Virus record (IMG/VR): IMGVR_UViG_3300043120_000083
Span: 37,027-101,026 of that record
Source of the DNA: a virus
Lineage: Duplodnaviria > Caudoviricetes
Strand: one strand, 5' to 3'
Length of the DNA stretch: 64,000 nucleotides
Shown here piece by piece: positions 7,410 through 39,389 of the stretch. The notes under the pieces were generated by a model, which did no database searches, was not told where the DNA came from, and was given only the letters and a program-made list of their open reading frames with translations. Position 1 is the first letter of the stretch; each line of letters begins with the position of its first letter. A program made the position numbers and the translations under genes.

Positions 7410-9413
7410 ATGAAATTCGTCTCAATTAAAGCTAAAAATTTTCTTTCTTTTAAGGAATTAGAATATAACTTCAAATCTCACCCTGTGTTAATTCAGGGTG
7501 AGAACTTAACAGAACCAGAAAGTCAAAAATCTAATGGTTCTGGCAAGACTACAATACAATGCGCTATTGAATATGCTTTATTGACAACTACCTCACGTAA
7601 AGTTAGGGATGCAGAATTAGTATTTTGGGGGGAAAAAGAGGGCAGTGTAGAACTGGAAATTTATTGTGCTGTACGCAAACAATCACTAATTATTGAGCGT
7701 AAGTTGCCTGTTAAGGGTAGCAATAAACTTGAATTGTGGTTGAAAAAAGGGGAAGAAGTTACCCCTGTTAATTTTTCTACAGTAGCAGACGGTAACAAGT
7801 ATATTCTTGATTGGGTTGATTTAAGTAAGGAAGATATTCAGAACTTCTATATAGTCAACAAGGAACGTTACACTTCCTTCTTTTCTTCTCCTAACGCAAA
7901 GAAAATTGAATTAATTTCCCGGTTCTCTAATTCTTATATGATTAACGGTGTTGATAAGTTAGTACAGGAAGATGTAAAGAAGTTGGAAGAAGTAATAAGA
8001 GAAAAAGAAATAAACAAATCTGCTATTCAGGGAGTGATTGACGATTCCAAGGAAGAGATTGATAAATTAGAAAATGAAGACTTTGAAGAAGAGAAAGAAA
8101 AGAAGATTAAATATAAAAGGTTAGAAATTGTAGAAGTCGGGAATGAGATAATTGAAGGAATTGATTTACGTAAAAACCTTGAAGAAAAGAATAAAGAAGT
8201 TTCTAAAAAGTTAGAATCAACAGGAAAGGAAGTAGGTGAATTAGAAACCAAAATTAAAGAACTAAACAAGGTTTCTTTTGAAGAAGAGTATAATAAGATA
8301 GAAGAAAAAGTAAAGGTTGTTAACACAGATATTGATAAGAAAAGTAAGGAAAAAAGAACTGTGAAATCATCCATAGATGAAATTTCAGATATGATGGATG
8401 AAATAAATAAGAATATTAAAGGTGCTGTAAAATGTCCAAAATGTTCACATGAGTTCTTGGTTGGAGACCCGGAAGTTGATATTGAGGAAGAGAAAAGGGA
8501 ATTGATAGACGTTGAAAAACTTTACAATTCCACTAAAACAAAACTAACTTCTATTAATGATGTTATTGAAGAACTAAATAAGAAAGTAGATAAAATAAAT
8601 TCTGAAAAAACAGTAATATCTAAGAAAGAAGAAGAACACAACAAAAAGGTAAGGGGGTTGAAACGTCAGTTGAGAGATATTACAGAAGAGGTTGATAGTT
8701 TAAATAAACAAATATCTCAGAATAAAAACTCTATTGAAAACTCAGTTCTTCAGGAACAACACCTAAACACAAAAATTGAATCTTTAAAACAACAAATTAA
8801 GGAAATAAAAGCACAAACAGGTAATTCTGAAAGAATAAAAGAACTGAATGAGAAAATTGCAACTAAAACGCAAGAACTTGAAAAGGTTGAAAAAGCAATA
8901 AAAGAAAAAGAAACTGAGCTTTACAATACAAGTCAATGGGTATTTAATTTTAAGAAGTTTTACGGTCATTTAGCCAATAAATCACTGAAAGTTATACAAG
9001 GGTATTGTAATAAGTATTTAGGAGAAATAAACAGTGATTTACAAGTGAAATGGGAAGGTTTTAAGATGAAAGCGGACGGAACACTGTCTGAAAAGATTAC
9101 TCCTTATATTATGCGCTCTGGAGAGATGAAAGACTTCTGGTCTTTTTCAGGAGGAGAAAGGGCAAGGTTAGATTTTGCTATGATCCTCACTATTCAGGGA
9201 ATTATTAATAGTTCACATAAATATGGAGGCGTAGAATTTATAAGTTTGGATGAAGTTTTGGAAGGAATTGACGATGTAGGTTTGGGTAATCTAATGAAGT
9301 CTTTAAAGAACATGGATAAAACAATCCTTCTAACAACACATGTAACAGACAGGAATACCCCCGGAGATATATTATTAGTGAGAAAAGTAAACGGAGTATC
9401 AACATTAAATTAA
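7410..9413 (+). CDS. SbcC/Rad50/gp46-like SMC ATPase
   Basis: NGSGKT Walker A, coiled coil with CPKC zinc hook, FSGGE signature, LDE Walker B. Confidence 0.9.
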   Translation: MKFVSIKAKNFLSFKELEYNFKSHPVLIQGENLTEPESQKSNGSGKTTIQCAIEYALLTTTSRKVRDAELVFWGEKEGSVELEIYCAVRKQSLIIERKLPVKGSNKLELWLKKGEEVTPVNFSTVADGNKYILDWVDLSKEDIQNFYIVNKERYTSFFSSPNAKKIELISRFSNSYMINGVDKLVQEDVKKLEEVIREKEINKSAIQGVIDDSKEEIDKLENEDFEEEKEKKIKYKRLEIVEVGNEIIEGIDLRKNLEEKNKEVSKKLESTGKEVGELETKIKELNKVSFEEEYNKIEEKVKVVNTDIDKKSKEKRTVKSSIDEISDMMDEINKNIKGAVKCPKCSHEFLVGDPEVDIEEEKRELIDVEKLYNSTKTKLTSINDVIEELNKKVDKINSEKTVISKKEEEHNKKVRGLKRQLRDITEEVDSLNKQISQNKNSIENSVLQEQHLNTKIESLKQQIKEIKAQTGNSERIKELNEKIATKTQELEKVEKAIKEKETELYNTSQWVFNFKKFYGHLANKSLKVIQGYCNKYLGEINSDLQVKWEGFKMKADGTLSEKITPYIMRSGEMKDFWSFSGGERARLDFAMILTIQGIINSSHKYGGVEFISLDEVLEGIDDVGLGNLMKSLKNMDKTILLTTHVTDRNTPGDILLVRKVNGVSTLN

Positions 9414-16512: not shown

Positions 16513-17844
16513 ATGAATTACGTTTTAAGAGATTATCAAGAAAGGGCAGTTCAGGATGGATTAAACTTCTTCCGTTCTAAAAGCAAAAAGAATGGGTATA
16601 TGGTGCTTCCTACCGCAGCAGGGAAATCAATTATCGTTGCTAATATAGCTAAACAACTGAATACCAACGTTTTAGTTTTACAACCCACCAAGGAGCTTTT
16701 ATTTCAGAACCATGAAAAATTTATTTCATACGGCTATGATGCTTCAATCTACTCAGCAAGTTTTGATAGCCGGGAAGTAGGACAAGTGACTTTTGCAACG
16801 ATAGGGAGTATCTACAAGAAACCTGAATTATTTAAAGATTTTCATTATATCATCATTGATGAGTGCCATTTAGCTTCCCCGGACGATAGCTCAATGCATA
16901 AAAAGTTTTTTAATGAATTGAAAGTTAAGGTTTTAGGGTTAAGTGCGACACCATTTAGGCTGAAAAGCTACAACTTCCCAACCCGTCACTCTAAGTTAAA
17001 CTTTCTTGACCGAATGAGGCCAAAGATTTTTAGTGAACTGGTTCATGTTACTCAGATTCAAGAAATGACAGAAAGAGGTTACTGGGCACCTCTGGGATAC
17101 ATTAGTAAGCCTTTTGACCGTTCTAAGCTTAAAGTAAATTCAACCGGAGCAAACTACACAGATGATTCTATAAAACAAGCTATGATTGAGCAGGATGTTG
17201 TTCAACAGGCTTACGAAATGGCTTTGATATTAAAGAAAGAAGGTAGGAAGAAGATTTTAATTTTCATGCCCGAAATAGCAATGGCTGAAGAGCTTGCTGA
17301 AATGTTAGGGGTTAATGCTGTAAGCAGTAAAACAAAGAAAAAGGAAAGGGAAGAGTATATTAATAATTTTAAGGCTGGAATTGATTTTGCTATTATAAAC
17401 GTTAATGTGTTGGCTGTTGGATTTGATGATCAAAGAATAGATGCAATAATAGATGGTAAACCCACTATGTCTCTGGGTATTTATTATCAGAAGTATGGGA
17501 GAGGGGTGAGGGTTGATTTATCCACTAATCCGGTTAAGCATGATTGCCTGATTGTTGATTTGGTAGGTAACTACGAAATGTTTGGCAAAATAGAAGATTT
17601 CATAATAAAAAAGAATGCAATAGGCAAATGGGCTTTGTTTTGTGGAGATAAGCAACTAACAAATACAGAACTTGTAAAGGATAAAAATGTAAACCTTGAA
17701 GATGAAATAATGGGGTTTGGTAAATATAAAGGAGAGCCTTTCAGGTTCATACCTAAAAGTTACTGGAGATTTATTCGAGACAACTTCAAAAGAAGTGCAG
17801 AAAATGAGAAGTTATTTAATTATATAGAAACTATTGAATTGTAG
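16513..17844 (+). CDS. Superfamily 2 helicase (RadD/UvsW-like)
   Basis: PTAAGKS, DECH, SATP and QKYGRG motifs, with a C-terminal FGKYKG domain. Confidence 0.9.
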   Translation: MNYVLRDYQERAVQDGLNFFRSKSKKNGYMVLPTAAGKSIIVANIAKQLNTNVLVLQPTKELLFQNHEKFISYGYDASIYSASFDSREVGQVTFATIGSIYKKPELFKDFHYIIIDECHLASPDDSSMHKKFFNELKVKVLGLSATPFRLKSYNFPTRHSKLNFLDRMRPKIFSELVHVTQIQEMTERGYWAPLGYISKPFDRSKLKVNSTGANYTDDSIKQAMIEQDVVQQAYEMALILKKEGRKKILIFMPEIAMAEELAEMLGVNAVSSKTKKKEREEYINNFKAGIDFAIINVNVLAVGFDDQRIDAIIDGKPTMSLGIYYQKYGRGVRVDLSTNPVKHDCLIVDLVGNYEMFGKIEDFIIKKNAIGKWALFCGDKQLTNTELVKDKNVNLEDEIMGFGKYKGEPFRFIPKSYWRFIRDNFKRSAENEKLFNYIETIEL

Positions 17845-18152
17845 GCAAATGAATGATATGATAAAAGAAATAGTTGAGCGTAAACTAAGTTATAATAAAA
17901 AACAATTGCAGAAATTTATAGATGTAGGTAATAAATCTGCAATTCGTGACTATGAAGTAAGGTGTCATACATTAGAGGATATACTTGAAGATGCAGACGA
18001 AGCGAATGAAGGTCAACAACCAGGCAGCAACTGCAATATTACCGCATGTTAACGTTTCGGTTTGCCCTAAATGCGGTTGTAATAAAATTACTGGAGATGG
18101 AACGAAAAGCTGGTGTCAAAATGAAGAATGTGACTTTGTGGAGGCAGACTGA
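17834..18152 (+). pseudogene. Distal cassette gene, apparently frameshifted: 72-aa ORF plus a startless 34-aa zinc-ribbon module
   Basis: Removing one T at ~18040 gives SNCNIPHV fused to VNVSVCPKCGCNK...WCQNEECDFVEAD* (18048-18152). Confidence 0.5.
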
Positions 18153-18153
18153 G

Positions 18154-18250
18154 CGTTAACGTCCCGGCTTGTATGTGCCGTGCAGGCCGCACACAGTAAA
18201 TTTTCACGGCACTAACTTAACAAGCATGGCATATTACAAGCTTGTTAGAA
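18154..18250. repeat. attC-like site A
   Basis: CGTTAAC, arm 18167-18183, 40-nt loop, arm 18224-18241, GTTAGAA. Confidence 0.85.
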
Positions 18251-18264
18251 AACGTTTTAGCGCG

Positions 18265-18549
18265 ATGGGCAATAATATGATATCAATTCACGATTTAAAG
18301 GAAAATCTTTGTAAAAAATATTATGGGAGTAATAGAAAAGTGTATAGACAATGTGACATGAATCAACTTTTGAGAATGTGGTCTGATTTAAACCATTTAA
18401 CAGAATTACATGAAAGGACTAGGCTTGTTCCTTACAACCTTGAATTTAGAAGTAAAAAAGCCATCCCTATTTACAACGCCCACTTATCAGTATTACAGAA
18501 GAAGTACCCACATATTTTAGAATTTCAACAAATGAGGCACATACAATGA
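18265..18549 (+). CDS. Cassette gene, hypothetical
   Basis: ATG at 18265, with the frame open back through site A. Confidence 0.6.
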   Translation: MGNNMISIHDLKENLCKKYYGSNRKVYRQCDMNQLLRMWSDLNHLTELHERTRLVPYNLEFRSKKAIPIYNAHLSVLQKKYPHILEFQQMRHIQ

Positions 18550-18767
18550 TTTCACAAATAGCAATTATGATTTTTGGAGCTTCAGCAATTTGGTTTGTGA
18601 GTAGAACTGAAAAATGGAAACGATGGGGCTATATATTAGGACTGTGTGGACAGCCATTTTGGATATATACAACTATACAAAATGAACAGTGGGGAATTTT
18701 AATCATGACATTGGTTTACGCTTATTCATGGGCACAAGGAATTTGGAATTATTGGATTAAAAAATAG
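18546..18767 (+). CDS. Cassette gene, small 3-TM membrane protein (loosely PnuC/PQ-loop-like)
   Basis: 73 aa, hydrophobic and Trp-rich. Confidence 0.6.
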   Translation: MISQIAIMIFGASAIWFVSRTEKWKRWGYILGLCGQPFWIYTTIQNEQWGILIMTLVYAYSWAQGIWNYWIKK

Positions 18768-18771
18768 ATAT

Positions 18772-18948
18772 ATGGAAACGATTTTTACTAAATTAAGTGG
18801 TAATACTTCTGGAAATAAATATGGAGGTTATACAGATCAAAGCATTGTAATAACTCAAATAATTGATGGAGAGCAGAAAGTTATTATCCTAAATAAAAAA
18901 GAGTTAGAAGAATTAGAAAGAGTTATAGGCGCTAAATTTAAAGCTTAG
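18772..18948 (+). CDS. Cassette gene, hypothetical (58 aa, not in ORF track)
   Basis: ATG at 18772 to TAG at 18948, ending just before site B. Confidence 0.55.
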   Translation: METIFTKLSGNTSGNKYGGYTDQSIVITQIIDGEQKVIILNKKELEELERVIGAKFKA

Positions 18949-18969
18949 ACTTGCGGGAAGGAAATGTTT

Positions 18970-19098
18970 TTCTAACGTTGAGTATATGATTTCGGTGGCG
19001 ATTGATTGCAGGACTTTTCGCATACCGACTAACTAACAAGACTGCACAGTGGTTAAATTCGACACCTTAACGCCACTGAATTATATACATTATTAGGT
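18970..19098. repeat. attC-like site B
   Basis: TTCTAAC, arm 18982-19000, 70-nt loop, arm 19071-19088, ATTAGGT (ATT in place of GTT). Confidence 0.85.
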
Positions 19099-19173
19099 GC
19101 TGTACGGTAAATAACCGATAAACTTGATTTGAAAAACTAACGTAAAAAATTAAAAAATAGGGAGGAAATTTTT

Positions 19174-19914
19174 ATGAAATATATGGGAAGTAAAAACAGA
19201 ATTGCAAAGCACATTTTACCTATAATGCTAAAATATAGAACACCTGAAATGACTTGGGTAGAACCTTTTGTTGGCGGTGCAAATATGATTGATAAGGTTG
19301 AGGGTAAAAGAATAGGTGGAGAATACAATAAGTATATTGCCGAAATGTGGAAAGCACTTGAAGCAGGATGGATTCCAAGAAGCGACTATACGAAGGACGA
19401 TTACTACAACATAAAGGCGAATATGGATAGAAACCCTGCTGAAGCGGGATATGTTGGGATTGCAGTAAGTTATTGTGGTAAGTGGTTTGGTGGATATGCT
19501 GGACTTTGCGACAATAAAAGCCGTGGGCCTGTTGACTACCAAAAACAGGCATACAACAACTTAATAAAGCAATTGCCAAATATTAAAGGTATTAAATTTA
19601 TACATAGTAGCTACCAAGACTTAGAAATACCACCAAATAGCCTTATTTATTGCGATCCTCCTTATGAAAGTACAACAAAATACAAAGACGACTTTAACCA
19701 TGCTGAATTTTGGCAATGGTGTAGAGACAAATCAAAAGAAGGACACACCGTATTTGTGAGTGAATATAATGCTCCAGATGATTTCTACTGCATTAAAAAG
19801 GTACAAACAAATACGCAACTTGGAAATGGCTGCCAGACAGGAAGCCAAAATAAGTGCGATAAACTTTTTACCCCAATGGCTGCGATAGCAGACAAAGAGC
19901 GTGGGCTTTTTTAA
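19174..19914 (+). CDS. Cassette gene, Dam/D12-class DNA adenine methyltransferase
   Basis: YMGSK, EPFVGG and YCDPPY motifs. Confidence 0.88.
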   Translation: MKYMGSKNRIAKHILPIMLKYRTPEMTWVEPFVGGANMIDKVEGKRIGGEYNKYIAEMWKALEAGWIPRSDYTKDDYYNIKANMDRNPAEAGYVGIAVSYCGKWFGGYAGLCDNKSRGPVDYQKQAYNNLIKQLPNIKGIKFIHSSYQDLEIPPNSLIYCDPPYESTTKYKDDFNHAEFWQWCRDKSKEGHTVFVSEYNAPDDFYCIKKVQTNTQLGNGCQTGSQNKCDKLFTPMAAIADKERGLF

Positions 19915-19965
19915 TTTTTGGTAATATACTACGAACCTTCATTAAGAGAACGAAGGCAGTATTGC

Positions 19966-20246
19966 ACCTAACGGTAAATGCAAGGGTATGTGCTGCCTTG
20001 AAAACTGTACAAAAGTAGATACGAGTAAATAACGATTAAATAATTAAGCGATGGCAAAAATTAATGAATTTGAGATAAGCATGGTTTGTTATAATGAAGA
20101 TAACAAATACACATTAGAAGAAATAAACGATATGCTTGTAGAATGGGCTGAAAGTAAAGATATATACTTAGGTGGCTCTGTTAAACCGTGTGCGCCGGAG
20201 GAAACTTCGGACGAGAGCGCAGCATTACCTTTGCATGGTGTTAGCC
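19966..20246. repeat. attC-like site C (large loop containing a gene start)
   Basis: ACCTAAC, arm 19978-19996, 222-nt loop, arm 20219-20236, GTTAGCC. Confidence 0.8.
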
Positions 20247-20365
20247 AACAACGTGAACTGTTATTGGCTTTTGCTAAATGGGAGTACGAAAGTGCAGAAT
20301 TTGACGACACTAACGAATACTTAGTTGACAAGTTTTTGGAAGAAAAAGCCAATAATTGTGGCTAA
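20051..20365 (+). CDS. Cassette gene starting inside the site C loop
   Basis: Codon 64 (Val) is the GTT at 20240. The stop TAA overlaps the TAAC of site D. Confidence 0.7.
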   Translation: MAKINEFEISMVCYNEDNKYTLEEINDMLVEWAESKDIYLGGSVKPCAPEETSDESAALPLHGVSQQRELLLAFAKWEYESAEFDDTNEYLVDKFLEEKANNCG

Positions 20366-20492
20366 CGTCAAACTTGTATAAAATGGCGGGGATATGTAGC
20401 ACTGACGTATCAACCCGGCATAAACCTTAAATAACAGTGCAAGCGGGCTAAAAAGTCACCACAACCCCGCTTTTTTATACAAATTGTTGTGG
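20360..20492. repeat. attC-like site D
   Basis: GGCTAAC, arm 20374-20391, 73-nt loop, arm 20465-20482, GTTGTGG. Confidence 0.85.
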
Positions 20493-20505
20493 TGCGTTTT
20501 TGTTT

Positions 20506-20763
20506 ATGTTTGACAATTGCATATCACAATTAAGGCACGATGTTCAGAAATATCAGGATATATTGAACGCTATTGAACAGGCTCAACAAAAATTACCTGA
20601 GTTTAAAGTAAAGGGCCCTGGGTCAAAGCATGAGTTTTATCTCAATTGTATTGAAGACTGGAAAAAACAAATTGAAGAATTAGAGGTCACACTTTTACCA
20701 TCTATGAAAGAATTTGAAGAAAAATATAAAAACAAACACCATTTAAAGGAATTGGGTTTTTAA
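20506..20763 (+). CDS. Cassette gene, hypothetical coiled-coil protein
   Basis: ORF fills the body between sites D and E. Confidence 0.65.
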   Translation: MFDNCISQLRHDVQKYQDILNAIEQAQQKLPEFKVKGPGSKHEFYLNCIEDWKKQIEELEVTLLPSMKEFEEKYKNKHHLKELGF

Positions 20764-20767
20764 TGCA

Positions 20768-20861
20768 CCACAACGGTACGGCAATATGATTAGTTGCCAC
20801 ACCACAGACTTTGAAATTTAGTAATAATTTGACAGGCAATTAATTATATTGCTTGTCATAA
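20768..20861. repeat. attC-like site E
   Basis: CCACAAC, arm 20781-20798, 36-nt loop, arm 20835-20852, GTCATAA (GTC in place of GTT). Confidence 0.85.
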
Positions 20862-20875
20862 ATCTGATAAAAATT

Positions 20876-21064
20876 ATGAGGAAACTAACTCAAGAACAAA
20901 AACAAATGATGGATAGAGCAATAAAGTTTGCACCAGCACGACAGATATTTATGTGGGTGTGGTGGGAGATTTTTTGCCACCGAAAAGCAGATAAACTTAT
21001 AAAATGTGTAGAAGTTGGAATGACTTGGATCGCTGCATACACAATCGCAAAAAATGTGCGATAA
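20876..21064 (+). CDS. Cassette gene (integrase-proximal), hypothetical
   Basis: ATG at 20876. Fills the body between site E and the attI-like end. Confidence 0.6.
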   Translation: MRKLTQEQKQMMDRAIKFAPARQIFMWVWWEIFCHRKADKLIKCVEVGMTWIAAYTIAKNVR

Positions 21065-21075
21065 TTTTTATTTGT

Positions 21076-21105
21076 TTATAACTATTATATATAAATATTT
21101 ACCTT
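21076..21105 (-). other. attI-like primary recombination site
   Basis: The last body ends in TTATAAC with no hairpin, followed by TATTATATATAAAT, directly upstream of the integrase. Similar sequence at 39391-39412. Confidence 0.6.
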
Positions 21106-21118
21106 TAAACATTTGATT

Positions 21119-21928
21119 ATGAATATAAAACACAAATCAACATTAGGAAAATTTGAAAAATATCTTAACCTTAAAGGATATTCTAAAAGGACTATTGATA
21201 TGTATATTCATTACACAAAAGAATATATTAATAGTTTTAATAAGCCAGCCATACATTTAACAATTAAAGATTGTCAGAATTATATAGAATCATATAAATT
21301 TTCTTCTAAATCTCAACAAAACCAAATTTATTCATCTTTAAAGGCATACTATAAAAGTGTGTTGAATATTGATCTTTCACATAAAATATTTTTAGAACGT
21401 CCCAGAAAAGAAAAACGTCTTCCACAAATAATAGAGAAAGAATACCTATTGTCCTGTATCAATAATATCAAAAATTTAAAACACAAGTCAATAATTTCTT
21501 TAGGGTTTTCGGTAGGATTAAGAGTTTCTGAGGTTTGTAATTTAAAGATTGAAGATATTGATTCAAAAAGAATGATTATTAATATAAGGCAAGCTAAAGG
21601 GAGAAAAGATAGGGTTGTGCCCTTATCTCAGAATATACTTAATCTTTTAAGGGAATATTATAAACAATACAGACCAAAAACTTATTTATTTAACGGGCAA
21701 AATTCAATCAAATATTCTCCAACTTCCTGCAATAAAATAGTAAAGAAATATATTGGGGAACAATATCATTTTCACCAATTAAGACATTCATCCTTCACCT
21801 CTCTTTTAGAATCAGGAACAGATTTAAGGATAATACAAAAACTTGCTGGTCATCAAAATTCCAAAACTACAGAACTTTATACACATGTATCAAATGAGAC
21901 TCTTTCTAAAATAAGCCTTCCTATTTAA
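21119..21928 (+). CDS. Tyrosine recombinase, integron-integrase-related
   Basis: YSKRT..Y and SQQNQ..SSL N-terminal domain, RPRKEKRLP, GLRVSE, KGRKDR, HQLRHS, IQKLAGH, TTELYTHV. Catalytic residues R-K-H-R-H-Y are intact. Confidence 0.93.
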   Translation: MNIKHKSTLGKFEKYLNLKGYSKRTIDMYIHYTKEYINSFNKPAIHLTIKDCQNYIESYKFSSKSQQNQIYSSLKAYYKSVLNIDLSHKIFLERPRKEKRLPQIIEKEYLLSCINNIKNLKHKSIISLGFSVGLRVSEVCNLKIEDIDSKRMIINIRQAKGRKDRVVPLSQNILNLLREYYKQYRPKTYLFNGQNSIKYSPTSCNKIVKKYIGEQYHFHQLRHSSFTSLLESGTDLRIIQKLAGHQNSKTTELYTHVSNETLSKISLPI

Positions 21929-23874: not shown

Positions 23875-24174
23875 ATGAACTATTTAATTCCAATCCCTAA
23901 CGGGCAATGCCTTTCAACTAAGAGATTGAAAGAGGTTAAAAAATTTATCCCTGAGAATAACGTTCTCAGGTTACATTTAGTAAATGAGAAACTTTCTCTA
24001 AATCAGAATAAGAAATACCAACCTCAACCGTACATCGTTCAAATAACTCAAAAAGAAATGGATGAAATAAAGAAAGAGATCAATAAAAAAGCAAAGTATA
24101 ATTTGAATGAGGTTTATATCCTTGTTCAATCTCGTAATTTACCAATTGTAAAAATAGAAGTAGGAAATGAATAA
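23875..24174 (+). CDS. Hypothetical protein
   Basis: 99-aa ORF. Confidence 0.55.
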   Translation: MNYLIPIPNGQCLSTKRLKEVKKFIPENNVLRLHLVNEKLSLNQNKKYQPQPYIVQITQKEMDEIKKEINKKAKYNLNEVYILVQSRNLPIVKIEVGNE

Positions 24175-26836
24175 ATACACAAGAGAGGAAGCTGTAAAAG
24201 CAGCAACGAAGTATTTCGGTGGAGATAGTTTAGCCGGGAATGTGTGGACAGATAAATATTCTTTGAAGGATTCAGAAGGGAATATTTACGAAAAAACCCC
24301 GGATGATATGCACTGGAGGTTAGCAAGGGAGTTAGCACGTATTGAAGCTAAATACCCAAACCCCATGAGCGAAGAACAAATATTTGGGCTATTAAAAGAG
24401 TTTAGGTATTTAGTTCCTCAAGGTGGCCCGATGGCTGGTATTGGAAATAATTTTGTAACAACATCCCTCAGTAACTGTTTCGTCATCCCATCTGCAAAAG
24501 ATTCATATTCAGGGATAATGAAGACAGATCAAGAACAGGTTCAAGTTATGAGGCGAAGAGGAGGTTGCGGACATGATATTTCAACCCTTCGCCCTCATGG
24601 AACAACAGCCAATGGAGCTAAACTTAAAGGGAATACTGGTTCTACTTTGTTTATGGAACGTTTCTCTAATTCAACAAGGGAGACTGCTCAGGACTCAAGA
24701 AGGGGAGCACTTATGTTAAGTATGGATATAAAACATCCAGATGCAGAAAGATTTATTGACATGAAAGTTGACACTAATAAAGTTACCGGGGCCAATATTT
24801 CTGTAAGAATTTCTGATGATTATATGGAAAGCGTTAAGCACAAAGGAAAGTTTAAACAACAATTCCCTATTGATTCAGAAAAACCCATAATGGAAAAAGA
24901 AATAGAAAGTAAAAAATTGTGGGATAAAATAATTCATAATGCGTGGAAGTCAGCAGAACCCGGAATTTTATTTTGGGATAATATTTTAAATGAATCTCCA
25001 GCTAAAGGGTATGGGGAGGATTGGAAAGAAACATCAACTAATCCGTTAGCCAATTAAATAACGTGCGGATTTAAAACCTCTTCTTATTGACTTGGACGGT
25101 GAACACACACCTACAGGGGGCAAGTTTAAATACAGCTTGAGAGACTAAGCGAAGAGGACACGAAAGTGTATGCGATAGTCCAGCGCACAGTAAGAAAGTG
25201 TTTGATACTTACGGTGTGAGGCGGTGAGATTCCCCTTAACCCACAAGATAGCTGTAGATTACTGGCTATCAACTTGTTTTCTTATGTGAATAATCCTTTC
25301 ACTAAAGAGGCACAATTTGATTTCGGTTTGTTTAAAAAGCATGTAAAATATGCCCAAAGATTAATGGATGATATAGTTGACCTTGAGATTGAAAAGATTG
25401 ATAAAATTATTGAAAAGGTTTTAAAAGACCCAGAACCATTAGAAGTAAAACAAGTTGAATTAAACCTATGGAAAAACGTAAAAGAACGTGCATTAGAAGG
25501 CCGAAGAACCGGATTAGGAGTAACTGCTGAAGGAGATATGTTAGCAGCCTTAAACATGGTATATGGTACTGAATTAGCCACTTCATTTAGTGAAGACGTT
25601 CATAAAAATTTAGCCATTGCTGCTTATGAGTCTTCTATTGATATGGCTAAAGAAAGAGGAACGTTTAAAATATGGGATAGAGAAAAAGATTTGAATGGTG
25701 GTTCTAAGTTCATTGATCGTATTTACAAACAACTTTCTTCAGAATACCAAAGGAAATGGATTGAGACTGGACGTAGAAACATTGCTTTGTTGACCATTGC
25801 TCCAACCGGAACAACCAGCCTGATGACACAAACAACTTCAGGAATTGAGCCTGTATTTTTGCCTTTCTATAAAAGAAGAAGGAAGACAGAAGACCCTGAA
25901 AAATGTGTATTTACTGATGAAGTTGGTGATATGTGGGAAGAATACATGGTTGTTCACCCTAAATATAAAATGTGGTATGAGATAAATAGAATGGGTTTTG
26001 TAGGTATTGATAAAGTAGATATTGAAGACCTCACGGAAGAAGAGATGGAAACCATCTACAAAATGTCTCCATATTACAAAGCAACTTCTAGTGATGTTGA
26101 TTATTTAGGTAAAGTTGATATGCAGGGTAGAGTTCAAAAGTGGGTTGATCACTCTATTAGTGTCACTATCAATATGCCTAAAGAAGTTACAGAAGAAACT
26201 GTAGGTGAAGTTTACATGAAAGCATGGGAAGTTGGCTGTAAAGGGGTAACTGTTTACCGTGACGGTTCCCGGTCTGGAGTTCTTATCTCAGGTAAGGAAG
26301 AAAAGAAAGAAGGGGAAATAATTTACAACGATGCCCCTAAAAGACCCAAGAATTTGCCTGTAGATGTTTATCACAAAATGGCTTTGGGTAAAGAGTTTAC
26401 TATCCTTGTAGGTCTTTTAAAAGGAAAACCGTATGAAATATTTGCTTTTGAACAATTATCACAGTCAGAATTTCCTAAAGAGATAGAAAGGGCAGAGTTA
26501 ACCAGAGTACGTAAGAATCACTACAGGTTAACCGGATACCGTGGAGAACAAAAGTTTGTCATCGAGAATATTGTGGAAAATATGAATGATGATGAGAAGT
26601 TTCAAACCCGTGATTTTTCTCGTAGTTTAAGGCATGGAGAACATCCTAAATATATCTGTAATGATATTGATAAGAGTTCTTTTGTGAGTAGTTTTAGGAA
26701 GGTTGTAAGTCGGGTTTTGAAAAACTATCTTACTAATGAGGATGTGAAAGACAAATGTCCTGATTGTGGGGGAGAACTTAAATTTGAGAGCGGGTGCAAA
26801 CAATGCGATAATTGTGGGTGGTCAGCCTGTGGATAA
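24167..26836 (+). CDS. nrdJ: Class II (B12-dependent) ribonucleotide reductase; exons 24167-25046 and 25221-26836, ~831 aa
   Basis: SNCFV, RRGALM, spliced TNPCGEIPL, TIAPTGT, SGIEP and a C-terminal zinc ribbon. Removing the intron restores the frame. Confidence 0.92.
25047..25220 (+). ncRNA. Group I intron, 174 nt, no ORF
   Basis: P1: exon AATCCGT pairs with GCGGATT at 25065-25071, with the U-G pair. P3 CCTCTTC/GAAGAGG, P7 GACTA/TAGTC, P8 with GAAA loop, terminal G. Confidence 0.92.
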
Positions 26837-35269: not shown

Positions 35270-37457
35270 ATGAAGAAAATAACCACCCTATTTTTGTTGT
35301 TTATTCTTTGCTCTTCTTCCTTTTCTAATTGGACTGGGACTACCCTTCAGGAAAGGAAAGAACAAGCGATACAAAGGAAGATAGCATACCTTTACAAGAA
35401 CTATCCACCTAATGAGACTAAGTGGATGTATGAAATAAGTCTTAGAATTAAAAATCAAAATTAGAGAGTTATGAACAATGCACTATTTTTATTAGCAGGT
35501 GTCTTATACCTTTTACTTTTCTATTTTATTCTGAAGAATACTGTTCTTCCACATTGGAAGTGGTACAGGAAATTAACCGGGGGAACTTGGTATTTATACA
35601 TTGATTCTTTTGTCTATGAGACTGAAACTGGAGTACGTACAAGAGAAGTAATGGAGTGGACAAAAGTTGCTCCTCCTAAACATTTAATCATTAAAACAGA
35701 AAACTATGAACGTTAGAGTGCATGTTAGAAATGAACTTGAATCAAGAGTGGTTCAAGAAAGAGCATTTGAGTTGGGATTTGGTTGGCGTAGGGTTTATCG
35801 AAATGTTCAGGAAACTGATAAACCCTATTTATTCTTAGAAAAACAGGATATGAGTATTACTCATGCTGACCACAACTATCACGATGAAGATTTTGAAGAA
35901 ATTTCATTCCCTACTTTTGTCACACGTTACATTGAAGAACTTCCAGAAAAATGGGCTATTGAGATCAAAGAAGAGTACATGGGTGATTTAAAAGTAGCGA
36001 TGGATAAAGACACTTTTAATGTCCTTTCTAATCTTTCTCCTAAATATGGATATTTTCACAGTCACGTTATTTGGGCAAACGGGTATTGGTCTCCTAAATT
36101 GAAGGAAGGGTTTACAGAGATCACTATTGAACAATTCAGGCATTTAGTTGTGGGAGATTCCTCTTCTTCTATTGTTTCTGGGAAATCAGAGTCTAATTTT
36201 GTTGATCTTGAACAAATAGTTGCTGACTTTGGTAAAGTAGGTGGAGGTAAATCTGTCACATATACTGTAAAAGTTTGTGACGACAATAAAATTTTCAATC
36301 AATCTTCACTCCTTTCTCTTTCCTTTAATGACCTTATTTCCCTCCAGGATTATTACATTAAAGAAATAAACGCAAATAAGGCGCATTTAAGCGTGTTAAA
36401 AACTTTATCTAAGCGTTGCCCCACTGAAGGGAATAAAACCTCTCTAAAGGAGGCTGAGACATCAAATAAGGCACTTAAAGAGGAACTGGAAGAGGTTGTG
36501 GAAGCTATAAAAGAATTTATTAACAAATTAAAGAAGTAAGTATGGAGGTAATTAATTACACTCCTGTTAATTTTGAAACACTTAAAAACAATTAATTATG
36601 TTACAATTTATTTTAGACAATTTAGAGATTATTCTTCAATTTTATTTTTTCGTGAATGCTTTTATTGCTGGGATGATGTTTCAGTATAATAAGGGTATGG
36701 AGAATGAATGGTATGAAGTTTTCTGTTATGTTTTTGCGACAACTTTATTTGGTATTTTTCTTTACATTTTCGGAAGTATTCACTCTTTCTTTTCTTCCCT
36801 TTACCGTAAACTTAATTTAAACAAGGTTTGGAACCTGTATTTCTCCTCTAATTTAAAGAAAGGGGTTCTCATTAAAGGTCAGGTTGATTACGTTAACAGG
36901 ATAGCTAAATACCACAAAAACAGCAATAGTTTGGGAGACCGGATTTATAGGTGGTATGCTAAGAGAATAAACGAGAGGTACGAAAATCAATAATATTCAA
37001 TTTAAGCCTATTCTAACCCCTTTTATTTTTTAAACAAGTAAATATACCAATCATGGATAAAAAAGCAAAAGAGACAGCAATTAGCAATCAAATATCGGCT
37101 TTAAAGGTTATATCTGATAATATCGGTTTCACTCCCGATTATTTTCATTCTCCTCAAAGTAGAAAAGAATTGGAACTGTATGTTCATCAATTTGTGGATT
37201 TTATTAGGGAAGAAAACCAAGTGGAGATAGTGACAGAATGGTTAGATACAGGAGGTTATTTTAGCAATGCTTGGGGAATTAAGGATAAATATAGGGATAG
37301 TAAAAATAAACTCATTCATTACGCTAAAATTCATTACGCTAAAAGTAATGATACCCTATCCACTTCTTTCCTTGAATCACAAATAAAAGCTATTGAAATC
37401 GTTGTAGAAAAACTCTTAGAAGAAGAAAAGGATGCAGGAACCCAAACAGGAGAGTAG
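35270..37457 (+). other. Run of hypothetical genes (35270, 35471, 35706, 36598, 37053), several membrane-associated
   Basis: Packed ORFs behind a TATCTTTG promoter element at ~35233. Confidence 0.6.
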
Positions 37458-39026: not shown

Positions 39027-39115
39027 AACTTGACTCTCTATTTTGTATTTCAATATAAAAGACTTTAATTTGCTTGTGATAAATGAAACGTTAAAAGAAC
39101 GAATGTGGCACTTAT

Positions 39116-39246
39116 AGCTAACGGTTGCAGATATGCCCAGTTTGGGATTAAATAGTAGAAACTTTAAATAATAGACAAAATGAATAAAAATGTAGAAACT
39201 TTAAATGAAACACAGAACCCCAAACTGGGCATATCTGATGTTAGCA
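39116..39246. repeat. Orphan attC-like site F
   Basis: AGCTAAC, perfect 19-bp arms 39128-39146 / 39219-39237, GTTAGCA. Confidence 0.85.
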
Positions 39247-39389
39247 ACTGTACTTGCGGTAAAGAAAAAAGATACTGCAAAGGTTGCTTATGCAATGTAA
39301 CTGATACAATGTTTTGCTACTGTGGTGAATTTCCACTTACAAAAGAAAGCACTTATACAGATGATGACCTTGAAGCAATGAATGTATAG
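39180..39389 (+). CDS. Cys-rich cassette gene starting inside the site F loop
   Basis: Codon 21 (Val) is the GTT at 39240. CTC, CKGC and CYC motifs follow. Confidence 0.65.
   Translation: MNKNVETLNETQNPKLGISDVSNCTCGKEKRYCKGCLCNVTDTMFCYCGEFPLTKESTYTDDDLEAMNV

Follow-up and report, generated by a model that had tools for sequence, protein, structure and literature searches.

Polar G·T wobble pairs distinguish the + strand of hairpin sites in a putative integron-like cassette array of a tailed phage

The cassette locus

The stretch of DNA considered here (the window) comprises 64,000 nucleotides (nt) of a virus of the Caudoviricetes, positions 37,027 to 101,026 of the IMG/VR record IMGVR_UViG_3300043120_000083. 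The window is part of a 101-kb contig in which the long open reading frames (ORFs) all lie on the + strand. Matches to PHROG profiles identify tailed-phage genes for a portal protein, a major head protein, a tail sheath, an NAD ligase, an SbcC-like nuclease subunit and a split ribonucleotide reductase. The region of interest is bordered by a helicase gene (16513-17844) and by the gene of a tyrosine recombinase of 271 amino acids (aa), and contains small ORFs, a D12 adenine methylase gene and long structured intergenic stretches (Table 1). The interval from 18.0 to 21.9 kb is probably an integron-like cassette array of a myovirus-type phage, in which the sites that delimit the cassettes would be recombined as folded + strand DNA. 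The hairpins formed by these sites, and the asymmetry of their mismatches between the two strands, are the subject of this analysis.

Table 1. Sites, cassette genes and recombinase of the array, and the solitary site F (window coordinates)
Feature	Position	Strand	Details
Distal site 0 (body-end pairing of an earlier note)	18046-18162	+	Arms 18048-18066 and 18143-18160; GTTAAC cores at both ends
Site A	18158-18247	+	AAC 18158-18160; arms 18167-18183 and 18224-18241; GTT 18245-18247
Cassette A body	18265-18948	+	Small ORFs 18265-18549, 18546-18767 and 18772-18948 (ORF list)
Site B	18974-19093	+	AAC 18974-18976; arms 18982-19000 and 19071-19088; 3' core degenerate (ATT)
Cassette gene, D12-class N6-adenine DNA methyltransferase	19174-19914	+	Pfam PF02086
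Site C	19969-20244	+	AAC 19969-19971; arms 19978-19996 and 20219-20236; GTT 20242-20244
Site D	20363-20488	+	AAC 20363-20365; arms 20371-20391 and 20465-20485; GTT 20486-20488
Cassette D ORF, 87 aa	20500-20763	+	No function by PHROG or Pfam
Site E	20771-20857	+	AAC 20771-20773; arms 20781-20798 and 20835-20852; 3' core degenerate (GTC)
Cassette E ORF, 62-71 aa	20876-21064	+	Nearest cassette to the recombinase
attI-like half-site, TTTATAAC|TATTATATAT	21071-21092	+	Without hairpin; 30 nt ahead of the recombinase start
Xer-like tyrosine recombinase, 271 aa	21113-21928	+	Pfam Phage_int_SAM_4 and Phage_integrase
Solitary site F, outside the array	39108-39254	+	AGCTAAC|GGTTG; arms 39128-39149 and 39216-39237; then GTTAGC

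Wobble pairs and strand stability in the window

The window sites were rebuilt on the + strand as AAC, spacer, arm, return arm, spacer and GTT, and the arms were aligned by a dynamic programme that penalised G·T and A·C equally, so that detection cannot favour a strand. Looser scoring over-extended the stems, and a tightened scoring was used for the final run. A finder requiring intact AAC and GTT cores recovered only sites A and D in the window. In the six array hairpins (18048-20852) the + strand carries 12 mismatches of G·T type against one of A·C type (two-sided binomial p ~0.003), where the base composition of that strand leads to an expected ratio of about 53:47. An earlier note, made from the letters of the window, had held that G-T on the + strand dominates the hairpin mismatches, and this claim survives strand-symmetric scoring. 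The individual pairs that it listed also reappear in the realigned arms: two G·T in each of A, B, C and E (those of E 5 bp apart, without a bulge), one bulged T in A, B and C (at 18235, 18990 and 19989), and three pairs between the arms of site 0, which are T·G, G·T and T·G and are accompanied by a bulged T at 18055. For site D, the G·T and the T·T reported by the note are both present, together with a C·A that it had missed; this site has no bulge. The stem of site F is almost completely paired; it lacks G·T, and its one A·C lies close to the loop.

Strand stability was compared by enforcing the Watson-Crick pairs of the arms and folding both strands with the DNA parameters of ViennaRNA. The + strand is more stable by 3.9, 3.6, 4.4, 8.8 and 2.4 kcal/mol at sites 0, A, B, C and E, respectively, that is at five of the seven window sites (0 and A to F); a + strand advantage is absent at D and F. 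At site C the enforced arms are also the free minimum-energy fold. Free folding of whole intergenic stretches gave small and inconsistent differences between strands, since long flanks and alternative folds swamp the arms. From the window alone, the energetic argument is only moderate.

The bias across related viral sites

Relatives of the recombinase number at least 286 in IMG/VR, at 54-67% identity, and 84 of the viral loci that encode them were taken for site analysis. The same strand-symmetric finder yielded a family set of 250 non-redundant hairpins upstream of the recombinase, each with AAC within 12 nt on the 5' side and GTT within 12 nt on the 3' side. On the + strand the mismatches of these sites comprise 327 G·T (G in the 5' arm, T in the 3' arm), 33 T·G, 20 A·C and 39 C·A, or 360 of G·T type against 59 of A·C type (1.44 against 0.24 per site). 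When the sites were joined by single-linkage clustering into 94 groups, G·T was favoured in 60 and A·C in 7. The + strand is more stable in 87-89% of the 250 sites, by a mean of 2.4-2.6 kcal/mol. Hairpins elsewhere in the same loci served as controls: those with anchors hold 17 mismatches of G·T type and 19 of A·C type, and those without hold 315 and 304. The wobble bias is specific to the cassette sites, and it is far stronger in the family than in the window.

With all genes on one strand, a G·T excess could be a by-product of strand-asymmetric mutation or base composition. The + strand is indeed skewed (A 0.38, C 0.13, G 0.20, T 0.29), with more G than C, and generic control hairpins downstream of the recombinase also fold better on the + strand, by 0.9 kcal/mol. 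An explanation of this kind is nevertheless extremely improbable: composition predicts a nearly even ratio, and because the bias is confined to the sites while the control hairpins stand at about 1:1, neither composition nor mutational skew accounts for it. Moreover, the wobbles are position-specific and polar, and in the bacterial sites described below the bias falls on the strand antisense to the genes.

Fixed positions, covariation and site architecture

The T of the wobble pairs is 15 nt upstream of the G of GTT in 157 cases, 12 nt in 63 and 10 nt in 57, and consecutive wobbles follow at intervals of 5 or 3 nt. After AAC the spacer measures 5 nt in 152 of the 250 sites, and ahead of GTT it measures 1-2 nt. 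The consensus reads (A or C)TAAC|G..., stem, ...T-GTTA(T or G), with loops of 11 to 222 nt. This arrangement corresponds to the architecture of attC, in which inverse cores (RYYYAAC ... GTTRRRY) enclose an imperfect hairpin that has a spacer without pairing and a loop of variable size. The longest loop is that of site C, which contains the start of ORF 20051-20365; the flanks of this site agree with the family consensus ATTnnnnCTAAC|GG...TGTTAG, and site E can be aligned with members of the family. Bulged T residues occur in about 12% of the 250 sites, chiefly on the 5' side (30 of 72 bulges). Since they are present in a minority of sites, a role for extrahelical bases is not established here. 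The conserved extrahelical bases that integron sites have on the 3' arm of the strand that recombines are lacking, and the conserved irregularity consists of the fixed G·T wobbles.

An alignment of 26 sites, including sites A and E of the window, was examined for covariation. Compensatory double changes are found at 18 of 20 stem pairs, and 90.6% of cells pair when read on the + strand as against 77.5% on the - strand. None of 500 shuffles reached the observed covariation values, and slid controls reached at most 53%. Four stem columns are mainly G·U. One of them joins the G that follows AAC to the T ahead of GTT in all 26 sites, and the others are G·U in 18, 12 and 19 of the 26. In one of the G·U columns the pairs are G·U in 12 sites, A-U in 8, G-C in 5 and C-G in 1, with no A·C. 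Mismatches away from the fixed positions are also of wobble type.

Fixed differences between arms could instead be those of a duplex site. On such a reading, the sites would be imperfect inverted repeats like dif or lox, in which the G-versus-A differences mark left and right half-sites and no strand folds. The fixed positions and polarity of the arm differences fit this explanation, as does an Xer-like recombinase without the I2 insertion of IntI. It is unlikely, because the arms vary widely in sequence yet stay complementary through compensatory changes at nearly every stem pair, because the range of loop lengths would not be easily tolerated by a duplex synapse, and because mismatches at non-fixed positions are wobbles too, with one column alternating among A-U, G·U and G-C and never A·C. 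The same bias has, in addition, been recorded in classical attC, where the recombining substrate is a folded strand.

Two subclasses of site were observed in the viral set. The first is a 41-nt mini-site, AAC-GTCYGATGATAAACAA-TCGTTTTAATG-TTGTTTATCAT-TT-GTT, with a perfect stem of 11-12 bp and an invariant loop, which recurs nearly unchanged before many different cassettes (L003 4412-4465 and 4828-4875, and many copies in L060, L061, L082 and L029). The second is a site of ~118 nt (in L024, L084, L082, L042, L053, L021 and L040) in which the next ORF starts within the loop, and the 3' arm and GTT core encode a recurrent peptide, (K/Q)L(N/G)I(S/P)(D/A)V. The arm of this subclass is therefore under both coding and pairing constraints.

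Cassette boundaries, half-site and polarity

The near-identical arrays of L060, L061, L082 and L029 contain the same cassettes at different positions. In two loci the cassette end "...GTGTATAAC" runs into the half-site before the recombinase, and in another it runs into a hairpin; the end "...TTGAATATAAC" is followed by the half-site, by either variant of the 41-nt hairpin or by an unrelated hairpin. Further shared segments begin and end at TAAC. Contigs of independent metagenomes also hold single cassettes of the window in foreign contexts, with matches to 18027-18160, 18158-18978, 20361-20775, 20769-21082 and 20808-21082. All of these matches end at the AAC core to within two bases, and those that start at a cassette boundary also start there. 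One contig from another metagenome is identical over the first of these segments and diverges right after C18160, and the match of contig X5 to the second runs from one AAC to the next. The cassette of site D is matched with one start at 20363, and the matches of contigs X2 and X5 begin at 20769/20772 and reach 21082. The metagenome comparison applies to those parts of the array that contigs cover. In ~60 related loci the half-site has the consensus ATTnnnnATAAC|TATTATATAT, variable to the left of AAC and conserved to the right.

These comparisons point to discrete cassettes bounded at the core and to an attI beside the integrase gene, both of which are features of integrons. Read on the + strand, a cassette would have the form C-hairpin-GTT-body-...AA with the hairpin distal to the recombinase, which appears to be the order seen on the bottom strand of a classical integron. 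Since the shared cassettes break at the + strand AAC and the half-site AAC|TATTATATAT abuts the recombinase, the + strand would be the equivalent of the bottom strand of classical attC, in agreement with the prediction that the earlier note had drawn from the position of attI. A crossover at G|TT, considered on account of an apparent linkage of a GTCT spacer variant to the upstream cassette, was rejected: the same end precedes four different continuations.

A covariance model (R1) built from the 26 aligned sites gave 252 matches in 48 sources. The independent matches all have recombinase-sense polarity and lie upstream of the recombinase gene, and the - strand rows are few and are weaker echoes of + matches at the same coordinates. 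Sites A and E, both in the training set, score 45.5 and 73.6 bits, respectively, and site F is an independent match at 50.9 bits. Site F lies 18 kb from the array, an ORF seems to start within its loop, and it may represent a lone cassette inserted outside the array. In most loci the recombinase gene is preceded by an array of at least five hairpin sites together with cargo genes. In L032 (4435-4884) and L063 (4340-4822) the cassette adjacent to the half-site differs from its neighbours in carrying an ORF on the - strand; neither ORF has a PHROG match.

DNA or RNA folding

The ORF lies on the folded strand in 233 of 241 units of the phage arrays, and the phage data alone therefore cannot separate folding of DNA from folding of RNA. 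In the alternative raised by the earlier note, the hairpins would be selected as RNA structures in phage mRNA, acting as terminators, processing sites or in the presentation of start codons, and G·U would merely be tolerated. This alternative draws on the fact that the wobble strand carries all phage genes as well as nearly all cassette ORFs, on the start codon of the next ORF inside many loops, and on an advantage of the + strand that is even larger with RNA parameters.

The bacterial relatives allow the two to be distinguished. At least 506 relatives of the recombinase were found in a genome collection, mostly in Flavobacteriia and other Bacteroidota, and the R1 model located 55 sites in 35 bacterial loci. 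On the model strand, 52 of the bacterial sites hold 100 G·T and 4 T·G against 17 A·C plus C·A, and 25 of the 31 inter-site units carry a long ORF (165-914 aa) on the opposite strand. Cassette genes that point away from attI and lie opposite the folded strand are thus found in the bacterial relatives and not in the phage arrays. As the bacterial sites keep their wobble polarity with genes in the opposite orientation, the wobble strand follows the polarity of recombination rather than that of transcription; mRNAs of these arrays would carry C·A mismatches. Likewise, the phage cassette with a reversed 149-aa ORF in L032 keeps the polarity of its site and two G·T pairs. A search of the whole window with Rfam covariance models gave no match at the gathering score, and one match at chance level in 17800-21200. 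The AAC and GTT cores, the breakpoints at AAC and a half-site linked to the recombinase have no rationale at the level of RNA. Selection on RNA folding is hence a very unlikely basis for the bias, although the hairpins may have a secondary RNA role in phages.

A second bacterial layout was noted in L126, L130, L132, L133, L138, L141, L157 and L162, in which a recombinase-like ORF of 352-388 aa has the array downstream. The sites there have the opposite polarity and the genes the same direction as the recombinase, an arrangement that resembles "inverted integrase" integrons.

The recombinase and a proposed mechanism

Among NCBIfam models, the window recombinase scores 180.6 bits with XerA (NF040815, cutoff 220) and 148.6 bits, split into two stretches, with IntI (TIGR02249, cutoff 265), so that both fall below their cutoffs. 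The best match among solved structures is XerA (4a8e, 1e-42), and the IntI4 structure 2a3v is matched in two stretches (residues 15-191 listed). The fold family is consistent with a simple two-domain recombinase of Xer type, although no equivalog cutoff is reached. The recombinase is accordingly neither an IntI-clade integrase with an I2 segment nor associated with the single duplex dif-type site per replicon, without cargo, of the Xer/dif system; it accompanies arrays with cargo genes.

Folding of + strand DNA with exchange at AA|C is the probable basis of the system, as judged from sequence, comparison and analogy. Each cassette would begin on the + strand with an attC-like site, 5'-...ATAA|C-G, ~4 unpaired nt, a stem of 17-22 bp, a variable loop, the return stem and T-GTTA...-3'. 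The + strand would fold into a hairpin when extruded or when otherwise exposed in single-stranded form, and the adjacent Xer-like recombinase would cut the folded site at AA|C. Exchange of the cut site with the half-site AAC|TATTATATAT before the recombinase gene would amount to the classical integron reaction from the bottom strand of attC. The G·T wobbles at fixed positions (the G beside AAC with the T beside GTT, and a T lying 10, 12 or 15 nt ahead of GTT) would keep the + strand helix continuous, and on the - strand the same positions would be A·C mismatches, so that only one strand would form the substrate. A single-strand substrate would in turn fix the orientation in which a cassette is inserted. 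Single-strand recombination, a cleavage point in TAAC and recognition of the wobbles by the enzyme are proposed by analogy; what is observed is the strand bias, where the wobbles fall, the covariation, the limits of the cassettes and how the sites are oriented with respect to the recombinase.

The identification of the + strand as the folded and recombined strand, equivalent to the attC bottom strand, is supported because four independent lines agree: the family G·T excess and stability, the covariation, the cassette bounds at AAC and the polarity of the sites. It was also the reading favoured by the earlier note. A number of points weigh against it. Site D favours the - strand by 2.0 kcal/mol with arms enforced, and site F lacks a + strand advantage, the - strand being slightly better. 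Without constraints, the minimum energies of the two strands come close together at A, D and E, where alternative folds are open to the - strand, and the DNA parameters of ViennaRNA treat G·T only approximately. The 3' cores of B and E are degenerate. The 250 sites constitute a sequence family and are not independent, which the cluster-level test addresses in part, and the crossover can be placed only within the shared TAAC(G). Finally, the recombinase lacks the I2 insertion by which IntI reads folded attC, and Xer-type enzymes normally act on duplex DNA.

A broader proposal can be advanced tentatively. Fixed-position G·T wobbles, rather than extrahelical bases read by I2, may be the strand-selection code of a large cassette system of Bacteroidota and phages run by a plain Xer-like recombinase, which may represent an independent or ancestral route to single-strand site-specific recombination, with phages keeping a separate cassette pool whose genes have the opposite orientation. 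If such a code were true, strand choice by a recombinase without the IntI insertion could be probed through simple base changes (G to A, T to C), and the code would bear on the evolution of single-strand recombination from Xer enzymes. Which strand folds determines the direction in which a cassette is inserted, and hence whether its gene is expressed, and here the folding strand can be identified from sequence alone in a cassette system that integron surveys have largely missed. With at least 286 viral and at least 506 bacterial relatives of the recombinase, the system is common; its phage cargo consists of methylases and many small genes without known function.

Cassette cargo and neighbouring genes

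PHROG and Pfam profile searches assigned no function to most of the cassette ORFs. Among the three ORFs of cassette A only 18546-18767 has a PHROG match, to a membrane protein. The methylase gene has 67-79% nucleotide identity to methylases in phages with unrelated hosts (Vibrio, Cellulophaga, Polaribacter, Shewanella, Enterococcus and Acinetobacter), which suggests that it has spread widely by horizontal transfer; it was the only match when the window was searched as DNA against a phage collection. The SbcC-like protein, encoded at 7410-9413 (PHROG 77, 1e-71), resembles a subunit of a palindrome- or hairpin-specific nuclease, which is noteworthy because the genome that encodes it maintains an array of long imperfect hairpins. 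The large subunit of ribonucleotide reductase is split between ORFs 24167-25057 and 25364-26836, which match consecutive parts of one PHROG (positions 203-477 and 549-973 of 975); the interval of ~300 nt between them has no Rfam match at the gathering score.

Comparison with known systems

The phage sites resemble classical attC in their inverse cores (...AAC and GTT..., pairing as the R box), unpaired spacer, imperfect stem and variable loop, and the arrays resemble classical integrons in having cassettes bounded at the core and a half-site beside the recombinase gene. The asymmetry between strands is also shared. In 263 classical attC sites, the bottom strand carries 1.24 G:T pairs per site, as against 0.39 for the top strand, and has a stability advantage of 2.12 kcal/mol (Nivina 2016, PMC5027507); the strand selectivity of attC was analysed by Bouvier 2009 (PMC2727003). 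The phage family likewise has both more G:T pairs and an advantage of ~2 kcal/mol on the strand that would be cut at 5'-AA|C, which is the pattern that integrons show on the recombined strand. The G:T bias as such is therefore an already published property of attC, and it supports the + strand as the equivalent of the bottom strand.

Several features set the phage system apart. The recombinase, at 271 aa, is Xer-like and has no I2 insertion, unlike the integrase of classical integrons. In contrast to classical attC, the wobbles of the phage arrays occupy fixed positions with G in the 5' arm, bulged bases are confined to a minority of sites, chiefly on the 5' side, and the spacer is asymmetric (~5 nt against 1-2 nt). 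The genes of the phage cassettes lie on the folded strand and point toward attI, unlike those of classical integrons.

Almost no integrons in Bacteroidetes were reported with IntegronFinder 2.0. Clusters of attC sites lacking integron-integrases (CALINs) have been described in virulent phages, including Polaribacter phage P12002L, and phage attC sites were recombined by IntI1, with bottom strands performing better than top strands (Qi et al. 2023, PMC9892861). P12002L contains sites of the window family with the same polarity around a methylase gene whose DNA is 79% identical to that of the window methylase; it also has long loops with coding sequence, and no homologue of the window recombinase was found in it. 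The CALINs were treated in that study as ordinary attC of bacterial integrons, without description of a cognate phage recombinase, an attI-like half-site, a reversed gene orientation or fixed wobble positions. A search of the literature on G-T or wobble pairs in attC and on integron-like systems of phages or Bacteroidota gave nothing specific beyond Qi 2023 and Nivina 2016, and no paper on this recombinase with these sites was found in the literature searched. What looks new is a cognate Xer-like recombinase without I2, polar wobbles at fixed positions that replace conserved extrahelical bases, an asymmetric spacer and a reversed orientation of the phage genes.

A further parallel is provided by CTXphi and other integrative mobile elements exploiting Xer recombination (IMEX). 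In these elements, XerC and XerD act at dif on a hairpin that one specific phage strand forms in imitation of a duplex site, exchanging a single pair of strands and leaving replication to resolve the product. The combination of an Xer-like tyrosine recombinase with a single-strand hairpin would be common to these elements and to the mechanism proposed here. IMEX rely on a host enzyme, one chromosomal target and integration of the whole phage genome, whereas the present system has an element-encoded enzyme and arrays of many cassettes.

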